Source: Reclinomonas americana ATCC 50394
Taxonomy: Eukaryota
DNA: 42,114 bases
Direction of reading: 5' to 3'
Assembly: GCA_048213135.1 (NCBI GenBank)
Contig: PS015828.1
Location: 1 to 42,114, forward strand
Shown here: positions 4,857 to 36,400 of the stretch, piece after piece
Layout: each line of letters opens with the position of its first letter
Position numbering within the stretch: the first letter of the stretch is position 1
Position numbers and translations under genes: made by a program
The notes under the pieces: model-generated
Database searches by the model: none
What the model was told of the DNA's origin: nothing
The model's input: only the letters and a program-made list of their open reading frames with translations

Positions 4857-5194
4857 ACACACACACTACGACGTACGTACTACTACTACACACACGACAC
4901 CGACCACGACGTCGACGTACGTACGACGGTCGGTACGGTCGGACGACGACACGTACTAGTNNNNNNNNNNNNNNNNNNNNNNNNNNNNNNNNNNNNNNNN
5001 NNNNNNNNNNNNNNNNNNNNNNNNNNNNNNNNNNNNNNNNNNNNNNNNNNNNNNNNNNNNNNNNNNNNNNNNNNNNNNNNNNNNNNNNNNNNNNNNNNNG
5101 TAACGGGAACGGTAACGGGTACGACGTTACACGACGTACGACGAGACGTACGAGACGAAGAAGTAAGTTACTACGTAACTAACGTACTACACAC

Positions 5195-5254
<60 letters not shown>

Positions 5255-5621
5255 GCAACATAGCAAGTACCGTCATTCAAGCACAGACCACGACCACTGC
5301 AGGTGACAGCGTCGGTGCAAGCAACTGGATTCTGCACGTACTGATCGGGGCCTTGACCGCAGAACGGATGGCCGGTCTTCTTGTAGTTCGGGGCGCAGAC
5401 TTCGCAGTTGGCGCCGCGATACTGGTGGAAAAAAGGGAGCTAAGCACGACGGAAAAATACACATGTACAGCGCGGGGAGAGGTGATGCACCTGAATGTTG
5501 CAGACGCAAGCACCGTTGACACAATTTCCGCCAGGCTGGCTACACTGCGCACCACTAGTGCACGCACCACCTGGGAGAGAGAGAGAGGAGGGTGAGGGTG
5601 GGCGAGTCGGCCGTCATGTGC

Positions 5622-5660
<39 letters not shown>

Positions 5661-5888
5661 GCACCTCCACTCTGCGCGCTGACGTGTGTCACGACCAGCA
5701 ACACCAAGAGAGTCGCACTGCATGCACACAACAAGCACGATGAGAACAGTAAAAGCAAGCGACGACAGGAGTTCGAGGGCACGCGCAGCGCACGTTCGCA
5801 CCCTGTGAAAAACAATATTCAGTTGGAGACACACACACGCACAGTTAAGCGCCAACAAAAACGCACAGAGAATCACACGGCTACACAT
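394..5888 (-). CDS. phoD: Secreted alkaline phosphatase D (PhoD) with N-terminal and C-terminal EGF/laminin-EGF repeats; multi-exon, spans a gap
   Basis: Spliced translation: signal peptide MCSRVILCATLLVLLVVTHVSAQ, Cys-rich EGF repeats (CSQPGGNCVNGACVCNIQYRGANCEVC) and a poly-Pro linker. PhoD motifs follow: FPQSVASGDP..VVLWTR, HLGDYIYE, IWDDHE, TMLGKPQREWL, DGWDGY, VFTGDLHS, VEFVTPGMSS, ANPWFQHLRTDVEGYNVVEVT. It ends in EGF repeats CVAGRCRCYAGIGGPNC and CNGRGRCSGSGACICNAGWKGADCS, with TGA at 394-396. Confidence 0.88.
4803..5248. repeat. (CT)n microsatellites flanking an assembly gap (N 4961-5098)
   Basis: Visible directly. Confidence 0.9.
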
Positions 5889-6262: not shown

Positions 6263-9813
<3,551 letters not shown>

Positions 9814-13892: not shown

Positions 13893-14584
13893 ATGACTGA
13901 GGAGTTGTTTGAGAAGCTCGCCGTCTTCTTCTTCGACGATGACATCACGTTACGTCGCACGATGGGAAAAAGGAAGAATCGATTGGTTTGCGCGCGCACT
14001 CACTTTCTGTCTCTCACACACAGAGGCGCCTTTGAGTCATTCAAGGCAAAGCACGCAGAGGCGTTTGTTGGAGTTGCGTGTGTGTGTGTGAGTGCGCGCG
14101 CGCGCAAGTTGACTCCTCTCTCTCACGTGCATGTTGTTGCGCAGGCGGATTTGACTGGCGAGCAGAAGCTTGAGTTGCGCACTCTCTGCCTCCATCTCCT
14201 CTCTGTGTTATCACTCACATGTGCGTCTCTGCGCGTGCAAAGATGGACGGGCATTTACAAGGAGTTCCAAGAAATGGTTTCGATCTCAGTCAATCATTCA
14301 CGCACTCGCTCGCGCGCGGAAAAACACTGATTGTTTGTGTGACACAGTACCAAGCCAAGCTGGTGGACTTCCTCACACAGGAGAACATTAGCGAGGAGCA
14401 GTTTGCGGAGCTGTGCGCCAGTGTTGCGTTCTTACCATTCGATATCATATTGTTCATGATGTGCTAGTGTCGTCACACGGTACGTGCGTAGGTACCAGAA
14501 GACTCGGATAACGGGCAGATTGTGCAGCTGCTGCTGGCCACCGCCGACTACGATGTCTTTTTGCAACTGATGACCACCGACTGA
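13893..14584 (+). CDS. Stand-alone BART-domain protein (ARL2BP/CFAP36-BARTL1 family)
   Basis: Six exons splice to MTEELFEKLAVFFFDDDITGAFESFKAKHAEAFVGADLTGEQKLEWTGIYKEFQEMYQAKLVDFLTQENISEEQFAELCASVPEDSDNGQIVQLLLATADYDVFLQLMTTD*. This matches the BART pattern (E.KLE.T.I..EF; LL...DF..F..M). Confidence 0.85.
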
Positions 14585-17216: not shown

Positions 17217-20200
17217 ATGGCTTCTGCCTCGCAAGCTCACCCGCACGTCGACGAGGTCGACGCGGAGGAGGAAAACCGCCGTTTGGTGGAGGTTTGTCAC
17301 TGCACACTCACACGCTCACACACACATAGACTTGCTTTTGTTGCATGCACTGCATGGAGCGAGACGAGAGACAACAAACAGGCAGTTGTCGCGCAAGTGC
17401 CATCTTGGCCATGTTCCAAGTGACAAGTCACACGCGCACTCTCCCCGCCTCTGTGTGTACTCACGCGTCTCTGCACTTGCTCTTTCTCGTCGCTGCCCTC
17501 CTCGCCCACTGTGCGCGAGTTGCACTTTGCACGCTCTTGCATGCCTGTTCCTTTTTCTTGTACGCGGAACATCTCACCGCCATGTGTGCGTCACCACTCA
17601 CTCGCACACTCTCTTATTTCTCCACCGTGCCTCCCTTCTCGCCACTCCACCTCCTTGTAACTTGCGCGCTCCCTCTCTTTCTCCACGCCACTTGCTTTCC
17701 ACTCGAGTTCTATTTTGGTCACTCTTGTACTCATCTGGTTGCATGACGACGACAACAGGATGCCCAGTCGCGCATGGCTGCGGCTTTTGGTCGCGAGGCC
17801 ATCCTCGCCCTGAAGAGCGCCAAGTACATTGTGTCGGGCCTGAACGGCGTGGGCGCAGAAGTCGGTATGTAAACGACTTGCGCCAAAGAGCAGGTTCCGA
17901 GTCTATCTACTCACGTGCTGCTGTAACACAGCCAAGAACATCATGCTGACTCGCATCGACACCATTGTGCTGCATGACACTCGCCCGACCACGTTCATGG
18001 ATCTCTCGTCGCAGGTACTCACTTGCTGCTGCTCAAACACGCACAATCACACTCTCACGTATGTCTCCTTGTGCACACACAGTTTGCGCTGTCGGAGGAC
18101 GACATTGGCAAGAACCGCGCCGAGGCCTGCTTCACTCGCATGCACGAGCTCAACCCGGCCATCAACGCTCACCTCGGTGCGTGTCACTGCCATCCCAGCT
18201 CCGCTTTTCTCTTTGTTTATTGTTGACGACGCTTTGTTGTGTGCAGAGACTGGCGACCTGTTCGACTTCCTGAAGAAGTCCGAGAACCTGCACCCAGACG
18301 GCCGCTCCATCTACGACTGCCTGGTGGTGCGTACCACTGTCCCTTGCGCTTGCCTTGTCTCTTTTCAACTGCCACTCACATTGTATGTCACAGATCTGTG
18401 ACACCAACATTGATGCCGACCTGCTGGCGCTCACCGACTGGTGCCACAACAAGGGCCTGAAGGTGGTGATTGCACTGTCGCGCGGTGAGTGGTGATGCTG
18501 GCTTGAGGTCAGAGAGGAGAAAATGGAGAATGCTGAGTGGGGGCATGCACACACAGGTCCGTTTGCCATGCTGTTTGCGGACTTTGGCCACGGTTTTGTG
18601 TGCAACGATCTGAACGGCGAGGAGTTCCAGGAGCTCCCCGTGCAGATGATTGTTGTGTTGTGTGTGTGCTCACAAGCAGCTCGGGTGTGTTCTGACAACC
18701 ACTCGGGGCGTGATTGCAGGAGGCCATCCCGGTGTACGACGAGGCCGGCCACCGTGTCGGACACAAGGGTGTGGTGCGCATCCGCGTGGCCGACGAAATC
18801 TGGAGCCACGGTCTGCAGGACGGCGACACTGTGTCGTTCAAGGTGCTGTGTGTGTTGTGTTGCGTGTGGATTACCTTCCAGTTGCTGACACTCGCTTGTG
18901 CAGAACGTCGACGGCATTGAGGGTCTGAACGGCAACGAGTTCCAAGTCACCATCATTGACCGCACTGCGTTCTCGATCGGCATGATCCCGCACGAGGGCG
19001 AGTTTGGCGGCAGCGGCTTTGTCAAGGGTGTGAAGAAGCCGGTGCCATTCTCCTTCGTTGCGTCGACTGCGAATGATCGCGTTCCGAGTTTGTGCGCGTG
19101 TTGCTCATTCTCTTCCTTGTTGTTATCACAGCGTCCGCTCCGCGACGTGCTGCAGAACCCGGGCCCGATTGTGCAGTCGGATCTGATGAAGATGTTCTCG
19201 TGCAACTCGGAGTCGCTGCACTTTGGCTTCTTGGCGCTGTCGCACTTTGTGGCGGAGAACGGTCGTCTGCCGACTCCGGGCAATGTGGCCGAGGCGGAGC
19301 GTGTGGTGCAAAAGGCGGAGACGATCTTTGCGGCCACTCGTGTGCAGTTTGTGCCGGGCTCGCCGCTCGTGCCGGTGCGCTCAGAGATGCCATTCGAGGA
19401 GGTGAACAAGGACCTGGTCCGCAAGCTGGCGCTGTACTCGCAGGGCAACTTGAACCCGATGGTGCGTCGCGATGAAGGATGAGAAGGAAAGAATGACGAG
19501 CGCTGAACTCCTTGCCCCACAACAGGCGTCGGTGTTGGGAGCTCTTGCGGCGCAGGAGGCACAAAAGGCGGTGACGAAGCGGTACCAGCCGCTGCACCAG
19601 ATCATGTACCTGGACTTTGTGGAGGTGCTGCCGGAGGAGCCGCTGTCGGAGGCTGAGCTGGCACCGATTGGAAGCCGCTACGACGGACAGATTGCGGTGT
19701 TTGGCAAGGCTGCTCAGGAGCGCATTCTGCGTCAGAAGATCTTCATGGTCGGCGCTGGTGGTGAGTTTGTATGCGAGAAAGACAGAAACGAGTGTTTCTG
19801 TTGCTCGCTTGCTGATTGGCGATGCGTTTTCTCCCTGCAGCTCTCGGTTGCGAGTACCTGAAGGACTTTGCGATGATGGGTGTGGGTTGCGGGTGCGTGT
19901 CACTGCTGTTGTGTACTTCTTATTGCTGTGGACTCACTGCGTTTTTTTGGTGGCCAGCGGCGGTGCCATCACGGTGACCGACATGGACACGATTGAGGTG
20001 TCGAACCTGAATCGCCAGTTCCTATTCCGCAAGCAGCATGTCAACGTTGCGGGCTTTGTGTGCATGTCGATCAGATCGCAAATGCGATGTTTTCTGATTG
20101 TTGTCGGTGGCTGTCTTCGCGATATCAGAGCTACAAGGCTGCGGTTGCGTGCCAGCAAGCGAGCAACATGAACCCGAATATGCATACCACTGCGCTGCAG

Positions 20201-23200
20201 CAGATGGTGGCACCGGCCACTGAAGGTGCGTTGCAAATCCGCAGGTCATGTCTCTGTGACGTAGCCCTTGTGTCGTAACACTTTTTGTGTGGGTGCATCA
20301 GGCCTGTTCGATCGCGCCTTCTGGGAGGACAAGGATATGGTGGTGAATGCACTGGACAACATCCAGGCTCGCCTGTACGTCGACGACCGCTGCGTGCAGT
20401 TCCGCAAGCCGCTCGTTGAGGCCGGCACGGAGGCCGTCAAGTGCAACTGGTGTGTGCATGTATTTTCCTGATGTTTTTCCGTTATCCTTCGCTCACTAAG
20501 CCTTGGTGTGCACAGCTGTGTGAGTACACTGGCTGTTTGGGAGTGTGTCCAGCGTGTCGTGGCTGGCAGTGTCTCACACCACGTTTTTGTGTCCGCTGTA
20601 CAGATTGTGATTCCGGGCTTCTCGGTCAACTACGGCTTCCATCGCGAGATTGACCCGCCAAAGGCCAAGAAGTGCACTGTGACCAACTTCCCTGTGCGTA
20701 ACTTGCTTGTGTAGGTGTGTAACTTGATTGTGCGTTGCATTCTGACCTTCGGTGTTGTCTTGTGCGCAGTACGTGCGTCATTGAATAACCCTTGTACCTT
20801 TATTACCAAGCGAATGACTCACGTTTGTTTTTTCCCCTCCTTGCTCTTGATTGCATACAGCTGGTGAGTTGGCCCATGTGTTGCGCGATGGTCCTGTCAC
20901 GTGTTGCTTAGTTAACCCTTCGAATCGCAGATCGAGCACTGCATCCAGTACGCGCGCGAGATCACGTTCCAGAAGCTGTTTGTGGACTGCCCGGAGGCTG
21001 TGGCCGAGTACCGCAACAACCCGCAGGCCTTCCTGGACAAGGTCAAGGAGATGCCGGAGACGGAGAAAGTCGATGTTGCGTTGAGGCGATCTGTATGTCG
21101 GAGTCGACGGGAAGATACTGATGTGGTGGTGCGTCGCAGGTTGCCCGCAAGCTGGCTGGCATTCTGAGCGCCGAGAACCGCTGCGCCTCTCTGGAGGACT
21201 GCGTGGCGTGGGCGCGCAACCTGTACGAGGAGGAGTTTGTGCACTCGGCGTTCCAGTGGCACTCGCTGTACCCTCGTGATGCCAAGAACCGCGACGGTGA
21301 GTCTTGTGCCGGCATTGCCTGCCATGTGAGTTGATGACTTGCTGACTCGGGGCATTATTGCAGGCACGCCGTTCTGGGGTGGCGTCAAGACTTACCCGAC
21401 GGAACAGCGATTCGACCCGGCAAACCCGCTGCACGTGCAGTTCCTGGTGCGCGACAATGTATTGTTGGCTTGTTGCAGTTGCCCTGCTCATCCCCGGTTG
21501 GTGCACAGGTGACGGCGACTGCGCTGCGCGCCAAGACTCTCGGCATTGCTGTGCCGTCGGAGTTCCGTCTGGATAGCCGCCGTGGAAAGGCGCTGGTGCT
21601 GGAGATCGCCTCGCGCGTCAACGTGAAGGCGTTCAGCAACTCGGCGGTTTGTAAAGCGTGTGGTGGTGGCGCGTGTGTCGAGTTCCTCATACCGTTGGTG
21701 AATGCGATGAGCAGAAGGCATCGACCGACGGTGAGGACGAGTCGAACGTGTCGCTGGTGCAGGAGTTCGACCCGAACGCCGTGCTGAGCTCGCTCCCGTC
21801 GCCGAGCGACATCTCGCCGTCGGTGACCGCCGATGAGTTCGAGAAGGACAACGACCTCAACTACCACGTGGACTTCCTGATGGCCGTGTCCAACATTCGT
21901 GCCATCATGTACCGCATCGACACGGTGGACCGCCTGAAGATCAAGCTCGTTGCCGGTCGTGTGATTCCGGCCATTGTGACGAGCACGGCTCTGATCTGCG
22001 GCTACGCGAGCTTTGAGATGCTGAAGGTGTGTGTGGATTTTCGGATGAGATTGCACTGAACTTGTCGGTTGGCTGACTGCTGGGTGCAGATCTGGTCTGG
22101 CCGGCCAAACTCGGCGATTCGCGAGTCGACGGTCAACCTCGGCACGCTGATGTTCACCGTGCAGGAGCCGATGGAGGCGCCGAAGGTGAGAGTGTCTATT
22201 GTGTGTGCCTGCTTCCTTCGGAGCGGTAGGGTGATGACTGATTGACGTGCTTTGTTCAACGTACAGTGGAGCTACAAGGGTGCGAGTGGCGACCACACGT
22301 TCACGCTGTGGGACAGCGTGCATGTGGACGCGCGTGGTCTGACGCTGAAGCAGGTTTGTCGTTGCTGTTGCTCTCCTCGCTGTTGCTCCTTGTCTCTGTC
22401 GCTCTCCTCGCTGTTGCTCTGTGTCTCTATCGCTCTCTTCGCTGCTGCTCTGTGTCTCTGTCGCTCTCTTCGCTGCTGCTCTGTGTCTCTGTCACACTCC
22501 TCGCGGTTACTCTGTGTCTTGTGTCGCTCTCCTCGCTGCTGCTCTGTGTCTGTGTCGCTCTCCTCGCTGTTGCTCCGTGTCTCTGTCGCTCTTCTCGCGG
22601 TTGCTCTGTGTCTCTGTCGCCCTTCTCGCTGTTGCTCTGTGTCTGTGTCGCTCTCCTTGCGGTTGCTCTGTGTCTATCGCTCTCTTCGCGGGTGCTCTGT
22701 GTCTCTGTCGCTCTCTTCGCTGTTGCATTGTGTCTGTCGCTCTTCTCGCTGTTGCTCTGTGTCTGTGTCGCTCTCCTTGCAGTTGCTCCGTGTCTCTGTC
22801 GCTCTCCTCGCTGGGCGTACTGCACACAGGCGTCCTCACCAATGCTATTCATTCCTGGCAGTTCTTGGACAAGATGAAGGCGGAGCAGGAGCTGAACATC
22901 GAGACAATCTCGGTGGTGCGACAGGACTACGTGGTGTGGTTTGGCGCTCGCGGGGCGCTGGACAAGCCGCTGCTTGAGCTCGTGGAGAATATCGTGAAGA
23001 AGAACAAGCTGCACGTGGACCCGTCTGGCATTATCGAGTTCCTGGTGTCGGCACCGTTGCGTAGTGGCCGTCTGCACCGCGCTTGGTGAATCGATTTTGT
23101 CTCACTCACGCGCGCGTGGTGATTTTACTGCAGTGATGGCTCCGTGGTGAAGAAGCTGGATCAGGAGGGCAAGGAGTACGAGGAGGACGGACCGGAGCAT

Positions 23201-23230
23201 CTGCCAAAGATCTTTGTGCGCGTGCACTGA
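17217..23230 (+). CDS. Ubiquitin-activating enzyme E1, divergent UBA1/UBA6-like
   Basis: SGLNGVGAEVAKN; RYDGQIAVFG; VGAGALGCEYLK; TDMDTIEVSNLNRQFLFR; NALDNIQARLYVDDRCV; catalytic KCTVTNFP(YL)IEHC; FEKDND; KLVAGRVIPAIVTST; UFD region FTLWD; TGA at 23228-23230. Confidence 0.93.
22370..22815. repeat. Intronic minisatellite with a 29-31 bp unit (consensus about CTCGCTGTTGCTCTGTGTCTCTGTCGCTCTC), roughly 14-15 degenerate copies
   Basis: Tandem units are visible directly inside the E1 intron 22354-22861. Confidence 0.9.
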
Positions 23231-23569
23231 GCGCACCCGACAATGCGGTTCGAGGGGGTACTTTGAATGAAGGAGTGAAACGACTTTCCATCAATAGTTG
23301 GGGAGGAGGACACCAGAGAGAAGGAGAAGAAGAAGAAAAAGTTGCATGGTTCGTAGATCGGTGTGCGTTGTCGTCGATCGATTTATAATGCATAACAAGA
23401 TGACGATGATGGGCACGACAGCAGCTGTCTCGATTTACAGGCCTGCTGTGGAGAGTTGCCGAGGGTAGTCGAAGAGATAGATGGAGAGAGAGTGAGAGAG
23501 GAGGAGGGGGAGCGGGAGTGGTGTTGCGTGCCTGGGTTCGTGGTCGATCAAACTTCCCAGCCCAGTATT

Positions 23570-26500
23570 TCATCGGTCCAACATGGTGGGCCATGCAGGC
23601 GCCCGAGCCCCGTCCATTTCCGAGGCGAGTTGGTTGGACGCGAGGAGTGTGTGCTGAGAACCACCGACTGTTGCTCCACAGTCGGGACAGCGGCTGGTTT
23701 GCATGGCCCCGCCGCACTCGCCGATAAAGTATGGATGTCCGTTGGGGCATTTGAACCAGTGTCCCGCCGCCGACGAACCACCCAGCTCCTGTCGCATGGC
23801 GGCCACGATCATCTGTCGTTCCTCCTCGGACAAGCGATTTGCGATGGCTGCAAGAGCCTCCAGGCCTTCGTACCTCGGGTTCAACTCTCGCAGCTGCGAG
23901 AAAGTCGTCAGCGACTATCATGATATCACCTGTACACAAGAAAGCAAAACGCGAGCAGACGGACGCAACAAAACGAAGCAGTCGCTTTGCTTTGTCAACG
24001 TTGGCATGCTGTCCAGACGACTCCATGACAATCCAGTGATGCAGGGCGCGACAACGGTGCTCCACCATCACTTGATCGTCAGCCGCCACACGCTGCAGCC
24101 GAAGCAGGTGGTGAGTGAGCGACAAGTGCTCGCCGAAATGAACACCGCTACACACCTCGTACTCTGTGGCGGCATCGACGCGACGGTTCGCGCGTTGATA
24201 CGCCTCGGCCAGTTGTAGGCGTGCATCGTGGTGGCTCGGAAGCATGTCCAGAACGCGTTTGAAGTTTTTGATGGCCGCCTTCAAGTTGTTTCTGCACACC
24301 TCGCTGTTATTTTCAAGCCGCCTACTCTCACACATTCCGTGAACTGTGATGCGCAACGAATCCAATGCCGCAAAGCCGGCTGCCATACAACGCTTGCTGT
24401 TGAGACGACGCTTGACTTTGTCAATGTCGTCCAGCGCGTGCCGAATCGAGGCTGAATACCGAAGTGTGCGACGCACCGATGCCTGCGGTCACCAGCATCT
24501 GAGACTAAAGTAGCCGTGGGCACGAGCAAAAGAGGCACATTGGCACGCAACTCGGCAGCTCGGACACTTTGGGAATCCGATTGCCTTGTGCTCCGACGCA
24601 TCGGGATCGTCCTGTTGCAATCCTTTCATGTACTCGTCGAGGCCGGTAACCTCGAAGACGTGATGACAGTCGACAAGCTCGACAAACAGTGCGTCTCCAT
24701 CAAACTGCATCCATGCGGACAGGTGTCAGCATAACACGAAAACAAGCGTCGCAGACGACAACCGCGTACCTCAGAGAGAGGCATCATGTGAATCGGCTCC
24801 TCCATGTCACCGTTACAGATGCGACACGCTCGCGGACATGGTTCGCCACACACACCAATACACGTATGACCACACTCAAGGACCTCCTGCGATGGTACGT
24901 GTCAAACCGGATGAAAGCATAGAGGATCGATTGGTATATCTATAGCATACGAACCGCACAGGGACGCATGCATGGCGGTCGATCACACGGGTCACTGCAC
25001 AGTTGGTGACAGGCATGGTGTTCGCAGTGGTACGCACACGGTTCGCCGCATGGCACGCAGATCTCGCCGCAGGCCTTCTGGCATCGCGAGTGCACACAGA
25101 AGTTTTCACATGGCAGAGCGCATGGCGGGCAGTCGTCGCAGCATTTCTGTCACTCGGTGTGAGATGCTTACTTACAAAAGCGCGCCCGACAGCGCAAGAA
25201 GCTAATAACGCAACCGACTGACACTTGTGGCCACACAGAAGGTACCGCTTGCACGGCTCAGTGCACGGTACATGCTGACGACCACCATGACACTTGCCAC
25301 ACGTCCCCGCACACGAATGACCGCATCGCTCCAGCACATGTCGACAGGGCTCACGACACTCGATTTTCTCGAGTGGCACTGAGCACGCCACGTAGGCCGT
25401 GTGTCCACACGGAAGCAGTCGGCGCACGTTGTGCCCGCAAGGGGCGCACTCCTCGCTGCACTTGCTCTGCATGATAATGACTCACTCTGAGCACTGCACG
25501 CTGCGAGCAGCGACTGCCAACCGCTACTGCACAGACTGCTGAAACACACCTGGCACTGATGTCCGCAGGAGAGGATCTTCGGACACGAATGCTGGCACTT
25601 GTCGAATTCTGCTGGGTCAAGGTGGCACGGCACCAGCTGGGTGTGTCCGCACGAAGGAATGACCTTGTCGACCAGTTCCATACACTTCCCCTCAATTACA
25701 GCCTTTGCATTCCAGCATGGCACAGTGAGACTTGGGAGTGTATGTGCTGTGAGAAGAGAGGGGAAACGACGCCGACGATCGAAACAGCCACAAATTCACC
25801 TGTGTTCAGCCGGACAACTGCGCGGAGTCACAGTCTTTTCCTTCGTGCACGGATAGGACTCGCACGATGCAGCGTGGCAGCACAGCGTGCACATGTGACC
25901 ACATTCTCGTCGCCCACCGCACGGTAACTTGCAGCCGCCGAGAATCACGTCATCAAAATCACGCGATTTGCTGACCGACGTGACGTTCTCTGCAACACGA
26001 ATGTGAGCAAAAAGCACGCATGGGGCACCCTACAAACAAACGACATGTTCCAAACCTGGATGGTGGTGACATTGCAGAGACAGCGCAGGTCCACACGCAT
26101 GTTGCTCGTCAAATTCACGGAATACTTGCCGCCACAGACCGCAACCCTGAGACTCAGACAACAACTTGCGGTTGCCGATCACGTACATGGCTGCGTTTGC
26201 GCCGACAACAAGAATGAGAACACCTCCATCGCAAGATACTGACTGCAGACTGTACCATGTCGGGCGCGAGAGAGCGCGACACAGATGCGGTTCTCGATCT
26301 TGACGAATCCAGTGACGCCTTCCATGTTGGATCGAACAAGCGACAACAGGATAATATCGTTCTCTTCGCCCTGGTAATCGTCGATCGTGGACACACGAAC
26401 ATGTTGAATGTCAGACGTGCCGGGAGTGTTCGCACGATGGCGGCGGAGCGCATCTTTGAGCTCCATCACTTGTCCCGTATCTGTGACACCAGCACACTTA

Positions 26501-29500
26501 GCTGCGGCGCGGAAAACACTCTTGAGTAGTACCCTCACGCAACAAGTAGTAAGCAAAGTGATGCGGTCGGCCGTGTAGTCGCCTTGCTGCAAGATATAGC
26601 AGCAAAGTCGCACCAAGAACTCGGCCTCGTGAGGGTTCTTCTTGCTGCCCTCTCCGGTCTCCTGGTGCTCGTGCGTCACGAAATAGAGATTGCGCGAAAT
26701 GCCGCGAACAGACGGGTACTCCAGCACGGACTCGTGATCCGTGAGTCGCGGATAAATGGGTCGCACCAAGCTTCGCAATGTGCAATGGGCACCAACACAC
26801 CCTCCTAACACAACACTCACGCAAGTACGAACCGACTGATCTCCGGACGCATACGATGCTGATTGGACAGAGTCTCGTGCCCGTGACCGACTGCCACGAG
26901 GCGTTCTGCGCGTGTGAGACCGTCATCAAATTGAGTCAGTACAAACACATCGCATGAAGCAAGCGGGCAACTCACCAAACAGGGAGACATCGTGCTTGTG
27001 GACGCGAGAGAGGTGATAGTCGGCAGCATGAGGTCTTGCAGACATGAAATGTCAGCGCTTGACAAAGAACGGTGTGCACAAGAAGAGAGCAAACCGAAGT
27101 TGCTTGTGGTCGCCGATTAGCACACATTGTTGAACATCTTCGAACAGGGCGCAGACGGCATGCGCTTCAAAGATTTCAGCAGCCTCCTCGACAATCACCA
27201 CGGACGGCGATATCTCGTGACTTGACAGCAAACTCGCGTACTTGGCAGCAGCTGCAAGCAACTCAATACTCTCAGCAAAACAACCCAAACCCACTGTGCA
27301 GTCAACGTGACAAACCAGTCGTGGTCATGGCAATCACTTTGGCGGAAGCCATAGCTCTGCACATTTGCACGCACACAGAGAGTGCAACAGTGAATTTGAG
27401 AGACCAGGTGTCATTGTCATCTTGTTGTCACACGAAACTCAATGTCACGCTCCATGTTCAGCTCTTCCAGCTGGTGTTGCGCGTCGAGGTACCGTTGATT
27501 GTAGTCGTCGATTAGCGGACGCAGTACGTCCATCATGACTTGCTGACGCAGTTGACGATGCAAGACCTTGCGAACGACAGGCGAGAGCTGCCAGAGATCG
27601 TCGACACCAGCGAAATCTACGTTGGCAGCAGGGGCGGCATCAGAATTCTGCTGTGAAAACTCTCCGACAAGATGATCAACGCAACCAGTTTCCATCATCA
27701 GCTTGACGGCTTCGACTGCCTCGGCTTCGGCTTCGGCTATGGAGGGAAACACAATCAACAACAGAAAGTCGGCAACGCACTATTCAGCCGTTCGGTACCA
27801 TGCAGATCCGCAGGAACTGTACAGTGACGACCAACATTAGCAAGGACGAATGCAAAACAACACCAAAGAAAGGCGCAAGAAACATGACAAACCATCGCCT
27901 GGAGCTTCTCTCGACACCGCTGCGACCGGAGCGACATGTGGGTGTGATGTATGGACATAGGAGACAGAACAAGAACAACCCCTCTTACCGTCGTCGTTTG
28001 CCTCCGCTTGCTGCAGTGCAAGCTCAAAGTCTGCAAACTTGCGATCCGAGAACTGTTCCACATCGCGGTCGTACCAGCCATCGTCATCACCGTCGTCATA
28101 GTCGTCATCATCGTCAAAGGCTTTCGGAATGATGGTGAAAGCGCGCTCACATCGACGATAGGCAGCGGCCAGCTCTCGTGCCTTGTCTGGCGAATATCCG
28201 AGCCACCGTGCGACGATGGCCATTTCGTCCATCGGTTGCTGCCGATCGCGCTTCTTGGAAAGAATCTGTTGGCCTCGCTGAACAAAGTACTGTCGAAGGT
28301 CCGATGGAATTCGGGTTTGCTCCAGATTGCACACCGGAAAGACATACAGCGAGGCCAAGACCTGTATCTGCTCCTCCAGTTGCTTGGACATCTGACGCAG
28401 TTCGTACATGGTCTTCCCGCGACGACCCGTAAGCTTCACCTGCCGTACCGCTTCCATCAGAGTGTACGGCTTCAGGCGCTCGCTTCGCGACCGGCCACCA
28501 ATTCGAATCACGCTGGTTGTAGTGTCGAGAATCGCCTCCAGGAACTGATCGATTGCGTGATTGGTGTAGCACACGCACAGGATTGGCCGATTTCGCAGGT
28601 TGACCGCACGATCCGTGCCCTCCGAGTTGGCCAGCAGCAGTCGAGTGAGAACGAGGCCGATGTACGTCTTGCCGGTGCCAGGTGGGCCTTGAATCAGTGG
28701 CATCTGAGAATTGAAGCACAGTTGCAGCGCAGCAAGTTGACTGGGGTCGAGACCAAGTGGAAGGTCCAACCACGTCGGCTGCCGCGGATTGTGTCGACGG
28801 CGGACAAGGGGAATCAGCTCTCGGACCTCGGGAGACATCTGCAAACACGGCGTGTTGACCGGTCAGTCAACCTCTCGAATAGAAAGTATTCAATTGACAA
28901 CGAGCGCCCGCACCAGAGTTGAGAAGTCCATAGGCGCAGCCGTCAGGTAGCCAGGCGGAATCAACGCGCGTCGGTCATCGGCCGAAGCCAGCAAGTACGG
29001 ATAGAAGAGTTGAATGTCGTTCAACATGGCCATCGACTGCAGTCTACGCAGTACGTGCACCGAGGCCTCGAAGTAGCTGCTGGTGGACTCGACCTGTGAA
29101 CAGAAGAGACACACATGAATACGCGGTCGGCAACTCATCCCTGCGCCAATCATCACACTTCTCGCGTTCCGTACCATCGTAAGAGTCTCAACATCGGCAC
29201 AAGGCAACACGAGATCACCACCGGTGACTCCAAGGATCTGCAAATCGACATCCTCGCCCTTGCAGCGAGTCACCACTCCACAAATGACGTGCTCCTCAAA
29301 GCGGTCGGCGCTCAACGCGACGAGAGACCCGCCCTTCAACAGATCGCGCTCAGGGCCCTTCTTCGGTCGATTCGTCTGCTTCCTCTTCGACTGGTTTGCT
29401 TGCACAATCTTGAAGTGGTAGCACAAGCCCACGCGTTGCACCAGAGTCGGTCCTGTGCAGACAACGCGGTCGAAGACGCGCAAGCTGCGTGGAGGTCGGC

Positions 29501-31968: not shown

Positions 31969-33341
31969 ATGGCTGTGAGCTTGTCGACTGAGGCCTTTGC
32001 GACGGCGATTCTGCACGCGTCCGCACACCCCACACGCGCCGTATGCGGAGTGTTTGTGGGCACACAATCGGGAAAGCACGTGGAGGCGCGCCACGCATGC
32101 CCTCTCTTCCATCTCTGGCTCAACTCGTCGGCCATGCTGGAGGTGGCGCTGAGCATGGTGCGGGAGAAGGGAGAGAGGGAGGGAGGGAGAGGGAGAGGGG
32201 ATGTGGGGGAGGTGGGAGAGAGGAGTGTGTGCAAGAGTGTGCAGGAGTGTGCAAAAGTGTGTGTGTGTGCAAGTGTGTGTGTGTGTGCNNNNNNNNNNNN
32301 NNNNNNNNCACACTCTCTCTCTCTCTCTCTCTCACGCCCACACACATTTCTCTTGTTCTGAGAGACAGAGACAGCCACATTCTCACCTTTTGAACGCATT
32401 TGAGAGACAGGAAGGCTGACGCATTCTCTCCCGTTCCCTCGCGTTGGGAAGTAGACGCGTTCCCTTCTGTATCTCTCTCGCTCACTCTTGTCCTGGGAGA
32501 CAACCGCATTTACTCACTCTGTCTCTAGCGCACGCACTCCCTCACTCAGAGAGATAAGATAACAGACTCGTTCTTTCCACTTTCTCTCTCACTCGCACTC
32601 TCGCACACGTTCTCTCCTCTCCTTCTCACACTCTGGGGGCAGAACAACAGGCACGATTCACTCACCTCCCTTCTCATGCATTCGGAGGGACAGGAGGCAG
32701 ACACCTTCCCCGTTCTCTTTCACACACACACACACGTTACCCTCACGTTGCTAAGCAGACGCATTCCCTCCTCTCTCTCTCACACACACGCACACAAACC
32801 CTCACTCGGAGAGACAAGCAGACGCGTACCCCTCACCTCCTCTTCCTCTCCACTCTTTGGTACACGTATCCCTCACTCGGAGAGACAGGAAAGCAAACAC
32901 ATTTTATCTCGTTCTTTCTCTTTCTCGGAGAGTACAACGGGCTAGATTCTCCTTCCCTCCCTTCCTCTCCCCCTCTCCCTCCCTTCTCTACCCCCTTCCC
33001 CTCACGCCCTCTTTCCCCCCTCCCCAGGTCCACAACGAGGAACTTCACCTCCAACAAGATGTGTTTCCGGGCACCGTTGCGTCATCCCTCACCCCCCCCT
33101 TCTCCTGTCCTCCCTTCTCCCCCTCCCTCTCTTTCCTAATTAGCGTGGCCCACAGCTGTACGTCGAGAAGCGCTTGCTCGACGCCGTCGAGTGGCTGGGA
33201 GGGGCGACAGTGAAGAGTGCGGTGGCAAAGACGGCCGCGGTACGCAAGGCCCACGTGTCGGTGTTTGATTTCGACGATCACTTTGCCGACGTGTCGCTGG
33301 ACTGGAGGAATCCGCAGGTGGCTGAAGCGCTGCGAGTATAG
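31969..33341 (+). CDS. EMC8: ER membrane complex subunit 8/9 (UPF0172, MPN-like); middle exon(s) probably in the gap
   Basis: MAVSLSTEAFATAILHASAHPTRAVCGVFVG..ACPLFH..MLEVAL and C-terminal VFDFDDHFADVSLDWRNP; TAG at 33339-33341. Confidence 0.85.
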
Positions 33342-33457: not shown

Positions 33458-36400
33458 TTACAGCACCGGCGTGACGGCGACAGCCATGGACTCCTGTGCG
33501 TGACTGGGTGAGAATAGCGTGCGTGAGCAGGAGTTGATGTGGCTGTTTGCGCAACGATGGCACACTCGTCGGTTCCGCGCTGTGGCACAATGTGAGTCAT
33601 GAAGCGAAAGACAAGGAGAGACAAAAAAAGGCAGAGTCGACTTACCCGAATGCGGAAGAAACCGTCCTCGCCCCAGGCAGTCTGCGCGAGATGGCAGTGA
33701 GAAGTGGGGGAGCAAGAGGCAGCATGTAAGAGAGAGAGAGAGACAAACCCCTGTGTTGTTGTGGACATTTGCGACGATGAACGCAAAAGAAATGTGAGCA
33801 GACGGGGCATCTTCAGCTGTCTGTCAAGCGAGCAACTCACCCCTGCAATCACACGAGTGAGACATCGAACAACAAGCACACATTGTGGACAAAGAGACAC
33901 TCACCAGCTGTTCTTGACCTTCCAGAACTGCGACGATGACGAGGAGACTCGTGTTAGTCAAGAAGGGAAAAGGATACATGGCGAAGCGAGCAGTGACTAA
34001 ACCTTCACGCCATCGGATGTGGTTCCGTATCCGACGATTACCACGACTGCAAAGCAAAGAGAGAGGAGTAAGAGGAAGGGGGATAGTCATGCAGGCACGA
34101 TGGCACGTCCGCAAACCGTCTGCGCAAATGACGACACGTGAGTGGTGCGCAGCATGTCAATCAATAACGAAAGACGCAACGATTGGTCAGCTGGAACGGG
34201 TTGAAGGTCACCAGGTGCGACACTGCGGTGTGCGAGTACACGCCACCCTGCCAGGCAAGCTTCAGTCCATCAAACGACACACTCTAACCATCGACAACGC
34301 CACACACCTTGTAGTTGTGCAGATCGGGGTACACCTCGAACGAGACAGCAATCGGGCCATTCGCCACCAACTCCTCCATCATGTTCAGCTCCGTGGCCGC
34401 CCCGTAGTAGCCACCAATGTAGTGGTAGTCGCTGTGCAACGGAGCATGTCAGAGGGAGGGAGAGAGTGACGAAAAAAGCGTGGCGAAAGGGAACGAAACG
34501 AGGTCCAGTGCAGGCGCGGGTTGGAGCAGCGCTTCGAGCACGACACCTACAGCCATGGATGGTGTGAGAGGTGACAGAAGCGGAGATCTCTCACATCGTG
34601 CGTCCTACACACACCTCCGTGGCAACATACGGGAAGCAGCTCTCCTCCACGTGTCCGAAGTCGTGGCCGTACTGCGCGGTCGCACGAAGGGAGTGCAGTG
34701 AGCGACGACAAAATCACACAGGGTGACAAGAAACCCGACCTTGCCAGCAGCCAGGTACGGGAAGCCGCCTGCGTCAACACATTTCGTCAGTCTGGTGCAT
34801 TCGGCACAAGAAGAGAGGTGACAACACACACCGTCGCAGCCGTGCGAGTAGACAGAGCACGAGACAATGTTCTGAGTACTGAGGATGACCTACACAAATA
34901 CGCGCGCACGTGCGCACGTGAGCAAAGCACTCAAGTCATACACTTCAAGCAAGGCAGGCAGGCAAACGCACCGTGTTCGTGTTGTTGGAGAGAATGCGCA
35001 GGCGAGCCTCGAGTGTGGCCGCCGACGCAAAGGCGTAGCAACTGCCGCATTGCTGTGTGGTGCACGGTGATGCGCGCGCATGAGCAAGTCAGAGCGGGGG
35101 AGTAAGGGAGGGAGGGAGGGAGGGAAAGAGCGCGACTCACTCCCTGGTTGCTGTTGGCAAGACGAGAAAAAGAAGCAGATGAGCTCTCAGCGTGAGAGAG
35201 ACAGCAATCGCGCGACAGGCACGCACCGGATGGGCGACACGTAGCTCACCTGTACAAAATAACACAATCAGCACGTGAGAGACTGCCATAGCACCCCCTG
35301 CATTTCGTGTGCATCACGCAACTCCATTGACATTGGTCCAGTCCCACGAGTCCGGCAGCGTCGACGACAGCGACGTGGCCGCGTTCTCCGCCAACTCCGG
35401 CTTCTGCGGCTTGGTGACAGCGGCGGCCAACTCCTGGCGCGCATACGAGCCACCGGCACGGCGCTCCATCTGAACAAGGCAGCGTGGTGAGCTCAAGTCC
35501 ACAGCTGTGATCCGAGTCACGCTTCACGCAACATCGCCAATGGTCAACCCGAGGTGCTCGTCGTAGGTAGTGGCCGTCCACAGGCTCTGCGCCTTGTTGA
35601 TGGCGTCCACAAACTCAAAATCGTGCTCGTACCTATGCACACGCCATGTGAGTCGACGACATGCACGCGCGAGGCATCACGAAACACAACTTGAGCTGGG
35701 CGCGGAGCGGGTCGACCACGGCCAAGTCGAGGCTCGTGCGGAGCGGCACCTTGGGCGTCTCCGGCGCGCTCTGCGTCTTGATGCCAAAGTAGCAGCCCCA
35801 GTTGCCCGGCTGCAAGTGCCACGAGACGAATGAGCGACACAACCAGTGTGTCTTCTTCAAACGGCCTCACCGCATACTGCTCTCCATCGTTATGGTACCA
35901 CCCCGGCAGCGTCTCGGAGCACACAGAGGTCACATGGCCACTCGGATCGGTCACCCACTTGGAGAAGGCGAAGAAACGACGACCGCCGACCTTGACTGCA
36001 CTCACGCTTGAGAACAATGACGCAAAACACAATGACAAGCGAGAAAACAAACCGTCAAACGACCTGTCATGAGGGGGTTTACATAACAACAGAAGGTGAT
36101 TAGTGAGTGTGCAGTGCGCGCCTGCTTTTGTTACACGAAACATGGAATAAATCATGGTCCAGAAGCCCTGATTGCCAGCACTGTCTGTGACCTTGTCGGG
36201 GTAATCCAGTGTGACTGTGTACGTGTTCTCCACCTATTGTACACGCATCCACTGAGCACACACACAGTGGAGAAGAACAAACAAGCGCGCGCGCAACAGT
36301 GAAGGGATTGGTGCAGTTGATGTTGTCACGAGTGAAGCCGGCCGGACCCAAGTGGAAGGTCCACGTGCCACGCACCTGTGACACGCGTGCACAGTGAGTT

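Follow-up and report, generated by a model that had tools for sequence, protein, structure and literature searches.

The 42,114-nt stretch of Reclinomonas americana ATCC 50394 DNA analysed here (GCA_048213135.1, contig PS015828.1, positions 1 to 42,114; below called the window) carries a UBA1-like gene for the ubiquitin-activating enzyme (E1), in which the exon with the catalytic cysteine is most likely followed by two consecutive exons of a single codon each, TAC and CTG (Table 1). Both are very probably constitutive exons which, lying between three ordinary short GT-AG introns, would encode Tyr-Leu between the conserved residues FP and IEH of the enzyme. Two adjacent phase-0 exons of 3 nt had been proposed at this place in a reading made from the letters without database searches (the sequence-only reading), and the letters are exactly as described there; that each exon is frame-neutral, being 3 nt long and in phase 0, is also correct. 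The 237 nt between CCT (20693) and ATC (20931) are cut by the two codons into introns a, b and c of 76, 88 and 67 nt, and both microexon acceptors end with CAG.

At the sequence level the pair shows the features of spliceosomal coding microexons (at most 15 nt), with flanking splice sites and with frame and conserved sequence restored upon inclusion. Recursive splice sites, that is zero-length exons, are found in long Drosophila introns, which are removed stepwise with nothing kept in the mRNA. The E1 sites are similar to these in that an acceptor and a donor are juxtaposed inside an apparent long intron, but here three bases separate AG from GT at both sites, homology demands that these three bases remain, and the whole stretch spans no more than 237 nt.

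The short introns may be recognized one by one over their 57–90 nt (intron definition), in which case recognition would not depend on exon length. An acceptor and a donor that are 3 nt apart could hardly be occupied simultaneously, and introns a, b and c would therefore probably be removed in succession, each splice lengthening the exon beside the remaining intron. As the Tyr-Leu codons are ancestral, the three introns would represent old or independent insertions inside 6 nt of coding sequence. Folding of the microexon region of the pre-mRNA gave a z-score of +1.18, and thus no unusual RNA structure that brings the sites together.

Conserved spacing downstream of the catalytic cysteine

The homolog set consists of the 31 full-length proteins (at least 900 aa) among the best 150 of 2,348 relatives found in a HMMER search with a conserved 101-aa exon of the E1 gene. 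In all 31 the spacing between FP and the following [IMT][EDHQ]H is exactly two residues. The motif C-T-x4-P-x4-H is present in 28, and the other three (one with C-L, one with C-I and one without the Cys) have the same spacing; in the E1 of the window the motif is complete once both microexons are included. A tblastn search with the best homolog (P0044) leaves its residues 612-613 unmatched: the P of FP (residue 611) falls at 20691-93, and residue 614 follows at 20931. Among 28 homologs, six have Tyr in the first position and two have Leu in the second. With a profile hidden Markov model (HMM) built from the catalytic-Cys regions of 28 homologs, the product with Tyr-Leu scores 208.1 bits, those with Tyr only or Leu only 201.5 and 200.7 bits, and the product with neither residue 199.1 bits; over the latter, both residues together add 9.0 bits, Tyr only 2.4 and Leu only 1.6. 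The proposal that TAC and CTG restore the two-residue spacing of UBA1 is thus borne out by the 31 homologs, by the tblastn gap and by the HMM gain.

When all stop-free, in-frame paths across the gap were enumerated, with up to three GT/GC-AG introns per path, a minimum intron length of 30 nt and no more than 18 additional exonic bases, 35 paths resulted, only two of which leave exactly two residues. The weakest splice site on the path with TAC and CTG has a score of 6.5 bits, as compared with -4.7 bits on the alternative, where 20869-71 replaces the CTG at 20861-63. A single intron could leave 6 nt in seven ways, all of them with non-canonical ends.

Splice signals, intron lengths and chance occurrence

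Position weight matrices for the splice sites were made from 16 of the 28 introns in the first E1 model, introns of uncertain borders and those in 20450-20930 being left aside. These reference introns are 61–83 nt long (mean 70, standard deviation 7). The four internal sites around the two microexons score 6.6–7.8 bits, in the upper half of the leave-one-out scores of the reference introns. Over the models of the E1 gene and of a cathepsin C-like gene described below, 46 of 47 introns measure 57–90 nt (45 of 46 before a 68-nt intron at 21647-21714 was added). Among the 46, all are GT-AG introns, 42 end with CAG and 34 have the branch-like motif CT[CG]A[CT]; the unusual donor GTTGCG recurs in seven of them. 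The sole long intron, of 508 nt (22354-22861, plus strand, in the E1 gene), holds 14.6 copies of a 31-nt minisatellite in an array of 449 nt (22365-22813), and with the array subtracted about 60–90 nt are left, like in the other introns. Taken as one intron, the 237 nt would lie far outside this distribution.

The probability that such sites arise by chance was approached by simulating 40,000 introns of 237 nt under each of two first-order Markov models. One comparable 3-nt exon-like site was found in 93 and 64 of the 40,000, respectively, and a chain of two such sites with sub-introns of 55–95 nt in none of the 80,000. Over the plus strand of the whole 42-kb window only the TAC and CTG sites pass the thresholds for a 3-nt exon; with looser thresholds and a filter on the length of the flanking introns there are three microexon candidates on this strand, all in the E1 gene. 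Five sites pass on the minus strand; two of these mirror branch sites of the opposite strand, two lie within ordinary exons, and one stays a candidate (14004-14006, see below). Since minus-strand sites pass the thresholds too, the pattern AG-NNN-GT needs homology beside it.

The branch-like motif ACTCAC reads as the donor GTGAGT on the opposite strand, which accounts for the strong antisense matches to AG-NNN-GT at 17915-17917 and 18023-18025 (minus strand, across E1 introns) and makes them a trap for microexon scans based on the pattern. The number of CAG-NNN-GTG[AC]GT motifs, 12 in the window with 2.2 expected, was dropped as evidence because intron-rich genes enrich donor motifs and ACTCAC produces antisense matches.

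Alternative readings of the region

Several points weigh against two constitutive microexons. Skipping of both preserves the frame, so the reading frame by itself would allow the shorter product. The weight matrices are based on 16 introns from our own gene models, which are derived from the sequence. Intron c lacks the strict CT[CG]A[CT] branch motif, a trait shared by 11 more of the 46 introns; a TTAAC found by eye lies about 17 nt from its 3' end. No match to the 54-aa exon downstream of the microexons was obtained among the longer proteins of the protein collection, and no spliced product was found there. Finally, the spliced aligner picks exactly both exons in 16, 8, 5, 1 and 0 of the 31 homologs at intron costs of 4, 6, 8, 10 and 12, respectively. 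The aligner was used to build gene models only, its outcome shifts with the intron cost, and it is not decisive at the microexons because a two-residue gap is cheap under BLOSUM62.

The sequence-only reading had also suggested that either exon could be skipped to alter the catalytic-Cys domain. Microexons that are real and behave as cassettes, one or both being skipped under regulation, would be frame-safe as both have 3 nt in phase 0, and the paths with one or no microexon use outer sites that are equally strong. Such skipping nevertheless seems unlikely, since the spacing of two residues is invariant in 31 of 31 homologs, the internal splice sites match constitutive ones in strength, and skipping would need introns of 158–237 nt, far beyond the range of 57–90 nt. 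In addition, any skipping of the comparable 2–3-nt exons in the cathepsin C-like gene would shift the frame or remove a conserved His. Constitutive-strength sites, invariant spacing and these unskippable exons together leave the idea of regulated skipping to modulate the domain without support.

A single 237-nt intron, giving an enzyme that is two residues shorter after FP and making the internal AG-NNN-GT sites coincidental, is less probable still. It has a good outer donor and acceptor and keeps the frame, the spliced aligner prefers it at intron costs of at least 10, and the 508-nt intron is a precedent for length in the same gene. The latter is accounted for by its minisatellite, however, and the 237-nt stretch holds no repeat above 18 nt; none of the 31 homologs has such a deletion, the HMM score drops by 9 bits, and the chain of two sites was absent from the simulated introns.

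Use of one microexon and not the other, which would insert one extra residue, is very improbable. Two-intron paths with either exon are in frame and have strong sites, and the spliced aligner took one microexon without the other in a single run, but the leftover intron would be 158 or 167 nt, the HMM gain is only 2.4 or 1.6 bits (with the two exons together, 9.0), and a one-residue spacing occurs in none of the 31 full-length homologs. Decay of the E1 gene into a pseudogene, or misassembly of the stretch, would make the local structure meaningless, but both are hardly credible: three runs of N are present elsewhere in the window (4961-5099, 6553-6656 and 32289-32308), but none within 12 kb of the microexon site, and the reading frame with its conserved motifs is unbroken across about 25 exons and 3 kb.

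The E1 gene

The window has a G+C content of 52–61% (in 2-kb windows) and numerous short GT-AG introns, as expected of eukaryotic DNA. The E1 model covers 17756-23050, and the 5' start and the last exon or exons are outside what was modelled. Single exons of the gene match the Pfam families ThiF (2.3e-11), E1_4HB (5e-13) and UBA_E1_SCCH (1.1e-14, 1.3e-08 and 7.4e-08), so that the ThiF-type adenylation domain, the four-helix bundle and the SCCH catalytic-Cys domain of E1 enzymes are all matched; a second ThiF match of 18 bits is under the Pfam cut-off. In the test for the ubiquitin-fold domain, the exon at 22862-23050 aligned with the C-termini of homologs in the spliced alignment and had no Pfam match. 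Among the matches listed, the named relatives are UBA1 or E1 proteins, the best named ones being from deep-branching protists, and the closest full-length homologs are from Spironema sp. and Willaertia magna. Andalucia godoyi has been characterized as poor in introns (PMC7050145), which does not agree with the intron-rich DNA seen here. The sole match to the 101-aa exon in the protein collection is a 178-aa open reading frame of unspliced appearance, with 63% identity. Sequence searches of PDB were made with two single exons, both too short to be informative: the 30-aa Cys exon gave no match, and the 54-aa IEH exon only chance matches to thermonuclease. The antisense strand over the microexon region has three open frames, with no match in Pfam, and no Rfam families or tRNAs were found in the window.

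Upstream of the Cys exon the same gene likely has a third microexon, the 4-nt CTGT, which only the intron-length argument favours. The alternative at 20450-20603 is one intron of 150 nt (20454-20603); either reading yields two residues there (CC with the microexon, WC with the single intron), so the products are equally long, and their HMM scores lie 0.2 bits apart.

Two other details of the first models were rejected as aligner artefacts, namely an exon of 9–12 nt at 18720/18723-18731, where one continuous exon 18720-18842 fits better, and a 47-nt GC-AG intron at 21636-21682, superseded by the 68-nt GT-AG intron 21647-21714.

Table 1. Coordinates of the E1 and cathepsin C-like genes and of their exons and introns discussed in the text (positions in the window)
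Feature	Position	Strand	Details
UBA1-like E1 gene, modelled part	17756..23050, continues past 23050	+	about 25 introns; tblastn and spliced alignment to full-length homologs
Candidate microexon CTGT, 4 nt	20516..20519	+	upstream intron 66 nt (20450-20515), downstream intron 84 nt (20520-20603)
Cys exon	20604..20693	+	30 whole codons, ends with TTC CCT (20688-20693); catalytic Cys TGC 20673-75
Intron a, 76 nt	20694..20769	+	GTGCGT...GCGCAG; donor 7.7 bits, acceptor 7.7 bits; CTGAC branch-like motif 24 nt from 3' end
Probable microexon 1, TAC (Tyr)	20770..20772	+	phase 0; splice sites, path enumeration, HMM
Intron b, 88 nt	20773..20860	+	GTGCGT...ATACAG; donor 6.6 bits, acceptor 7.8 bits; CTCAC motif 39 nt from 3' end
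Probable microexon 2, CTG (Leu)	20861..20863	+	phase 0; splice sites, path enumeration, HMM
Intron c, 67 nt	20864..20930	+	GTGAGT...TCGCAG; donor 7.6 bits, acceptor 6.5 bits
IEH exon	20931..21074 or 21092 (both in frame)	+	starts with ATC GAG CAC; residue 1 is position 4 of the Pfam UBA_E1_SCCH profile
Cathepsin C-like gene	36200 to ~33462	-	coding sequence of about 1.2 kb, interrupted by about 22 introns
Predicted 3-nt exon ACG	34119-34117	-	flanking introns 61 and 70 nt; contributes two of the three bases to the His codon of TN-H-VVV
Two consecutive predicted 2-nt exons, GG and GG	33842-41, 33750-49	-	introns 62, 90 and 67 nt; product NSW-G-TAWG
Two further predicted exons (10 and 11 nt) of the cathepsin C-like gene	35141-35150, 36053-36063	-	gene model

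A second gene with predicted ultra-short exons

The cathepsin C-like gene on the minus strand has one exon that matches the Pfam family CathepsinC_exc, and its homologs, some of which are named cathepsin C or dipeptidyl peptidase 1, contain PF08773 and PF00112. Its model has one 3-nt exon within the codon for the His of TN-H-VVV, which we take to be the catalytic residue of papain-like proteases, and two consecutive 2-nt exons that lie inside NSW-G-TAWG. The pattern NSW[GD]xxWG is found in 12 of 12 homologs, and no single-intron path from ...AAC AGC TG to the exon starting with ACT GCC TGG keeps the frame, the best path being the one through both 2-nt exons; this makes the case stronger than that of the E1 gene. 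With all 12 homologs the spliced aligner chose the 3-nt exon at intron costs of 6, 10, 14 and 18, and both 2-nt exons at costs of 6, 10 and 14, with neither chosen for any homolog at 18. Skipping of the 2–3-nt exons leads to a frameshift or to loss of the conserved His. As the gene requires one 3-nt and two 2-nt exons, ultra-short exons appear to recur within the window, and provided that the cathepsin C-like gene is functional, the organism would splice exons of 2–3 nt routinely.

Exon sizes and possible clustering of introns

Counted before intron 21647-21714 was added, the E1 gene has 24 introns in 3,140 coding nt and the cathepsin C-like gene 22 in 1,223, corresponding to 7.6 and 18 introns per coding kb; on the same scale, PMC3174169 gives 6–7 for genomes rich in introns. 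The internal exons of the two genes number 44, of which eight are at most 11 nt and six at most 4 nt. Under random placement of introns 2.2 exons of at most 4 nt are expected, giving P = 0.016 for six or more, and without the 4-nt candidate in the E1 gene P = 0.059 for five or more. An adjacent pair of exons of at most 4 nt in both genes has P = 0.0014. These values suggest that intron positions cluster, and they are to be taken as a lead since they come from two genes picked after the fact. The ultra-short exons are located in the catalytic loop of the E1, and in the His codon and the NSWG motif of the cathepsin C-like protein. It is conceivable, with more doubt than confidence, that exons of 2–4 nt are far commoner in this organism than in any described genome; they would result from a non-random clustering of intron positions and be tolerated because the spliceosome defines introns of 57–90 nt whatever the size of the exon.

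An origin of the introns as introners or by recent tandem duplication was rejected, as the introns form no similarity families within the window. All-against-all blastn of the 46 introns gave only two short matches, of 14 and 16 nt, the eight pairs of neighbouring introns lie between the 26th and 97th percentiles of 990 pairs by similarity, and introns a, b and c show no similarity among themselves or to the other 43.

Intron density differs greatly among neighbouring genes, since long open frames are found at 23106-24488 and 24876-26922 on the minus strand; these uninterrupted frames are of 460 (23106-24488), 201, 197 and 247 aa.

Comparison with known microexons

Microexons this small, also adjacent ones, are already known in plants and animals, and it is their frequency in the window that is unusual. 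Three-nucleotide exons have been described in animals, as has a run of three microexons in RPS24. The E1 pair resembles these in exon size, in the possible occurrence of runs and in the one residue gained upon inclusion, but the animal 3-nt exons are alternative and tissue-regulated in genomes with long introns and exon definition, whereas those of this protist are apparently constitutive and flanked by introns of 67–88 nt. The eMIC/SRRM4 system is an animal feature. For SRRM4-dependent neuronal microexons it has been suggested that U1 and U2 are unable to co-assemble on either side of a very short exon, so that one flanking intron leaves first (PMC10250204). The steric problem at the E1 locus is the same, and an ordered removal of introns would be expected here as well, but the upstream acceptors of SRRM4 microexons are weak (PMC10250204) and the acceptors here are strong.

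In plants, 2,398 microexons have been reported across 10 species, and coding microexons of 1–15 nt have been validated, including 1-nt exons in APC11 and VPS55 and adjacent exons of 5 nt and 12 nt in a rice gene (PMC8831610). Like the exons described here, these are coding exons of a few nucleotides between normal GT-AG introns, sometimes adjacent, which annotation usually misses and on which conserved protein sequence depends. Plant microexons are rare according to the same source, unlike the eight of 44 internal exons with at most 11 nt in our two genes, and no pair of single-codon exons was noticed there. Human MPC1 has a constitutive 4-bp microexon whose loss would break the frame (PMC9929638), as would loss of the candidate 4-nt exon in the E1 gene or of the 2-nt exons in the cathepsin C-like gene; it stands alone, in a mammalian gene. 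In a literature search that was incomplete and did not extend to supplementary tables, no description was found of consecutive single-codon exons in an E1, or of a protist with abundant exons of at most 4 nt.

Exons of this size are overlooked by standard gene predictors and read mappers. An automatic model of the E1 gene would omit two residues adjoining the catalytic cysteine, and one of the cathepsin C-like gene would show a frameshift or lack the conserved His. If true, the recurrence of 2–3-nt exons between uniformly short introns would offer a natural system for studying the use of splice sites at a distance of a few bases and the order of intron removal. Three introns within six coding bases, with a similar arrangement in two genes of a 42-kb window, hint at clustering, which bears on the gain of introns. 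Of greater interest is whether clusters of ultra-short exons characterize the whole genome of the organism.

Other candidate sites in the window

The sites at 5568 (minus strand) and 38930 (plus strand) were rejected as microexons, since by their sequence both belong to ordinary exons. At 14004-14006 on the minus strand, AAA is a candidate 3-nt exon, and its flanking sites are good. On the same strand, the region 5565-5802 contains several candidate exons of 1–9 nt between candidate introns of 67–94 nt, in a Cys-rich coding stretch.

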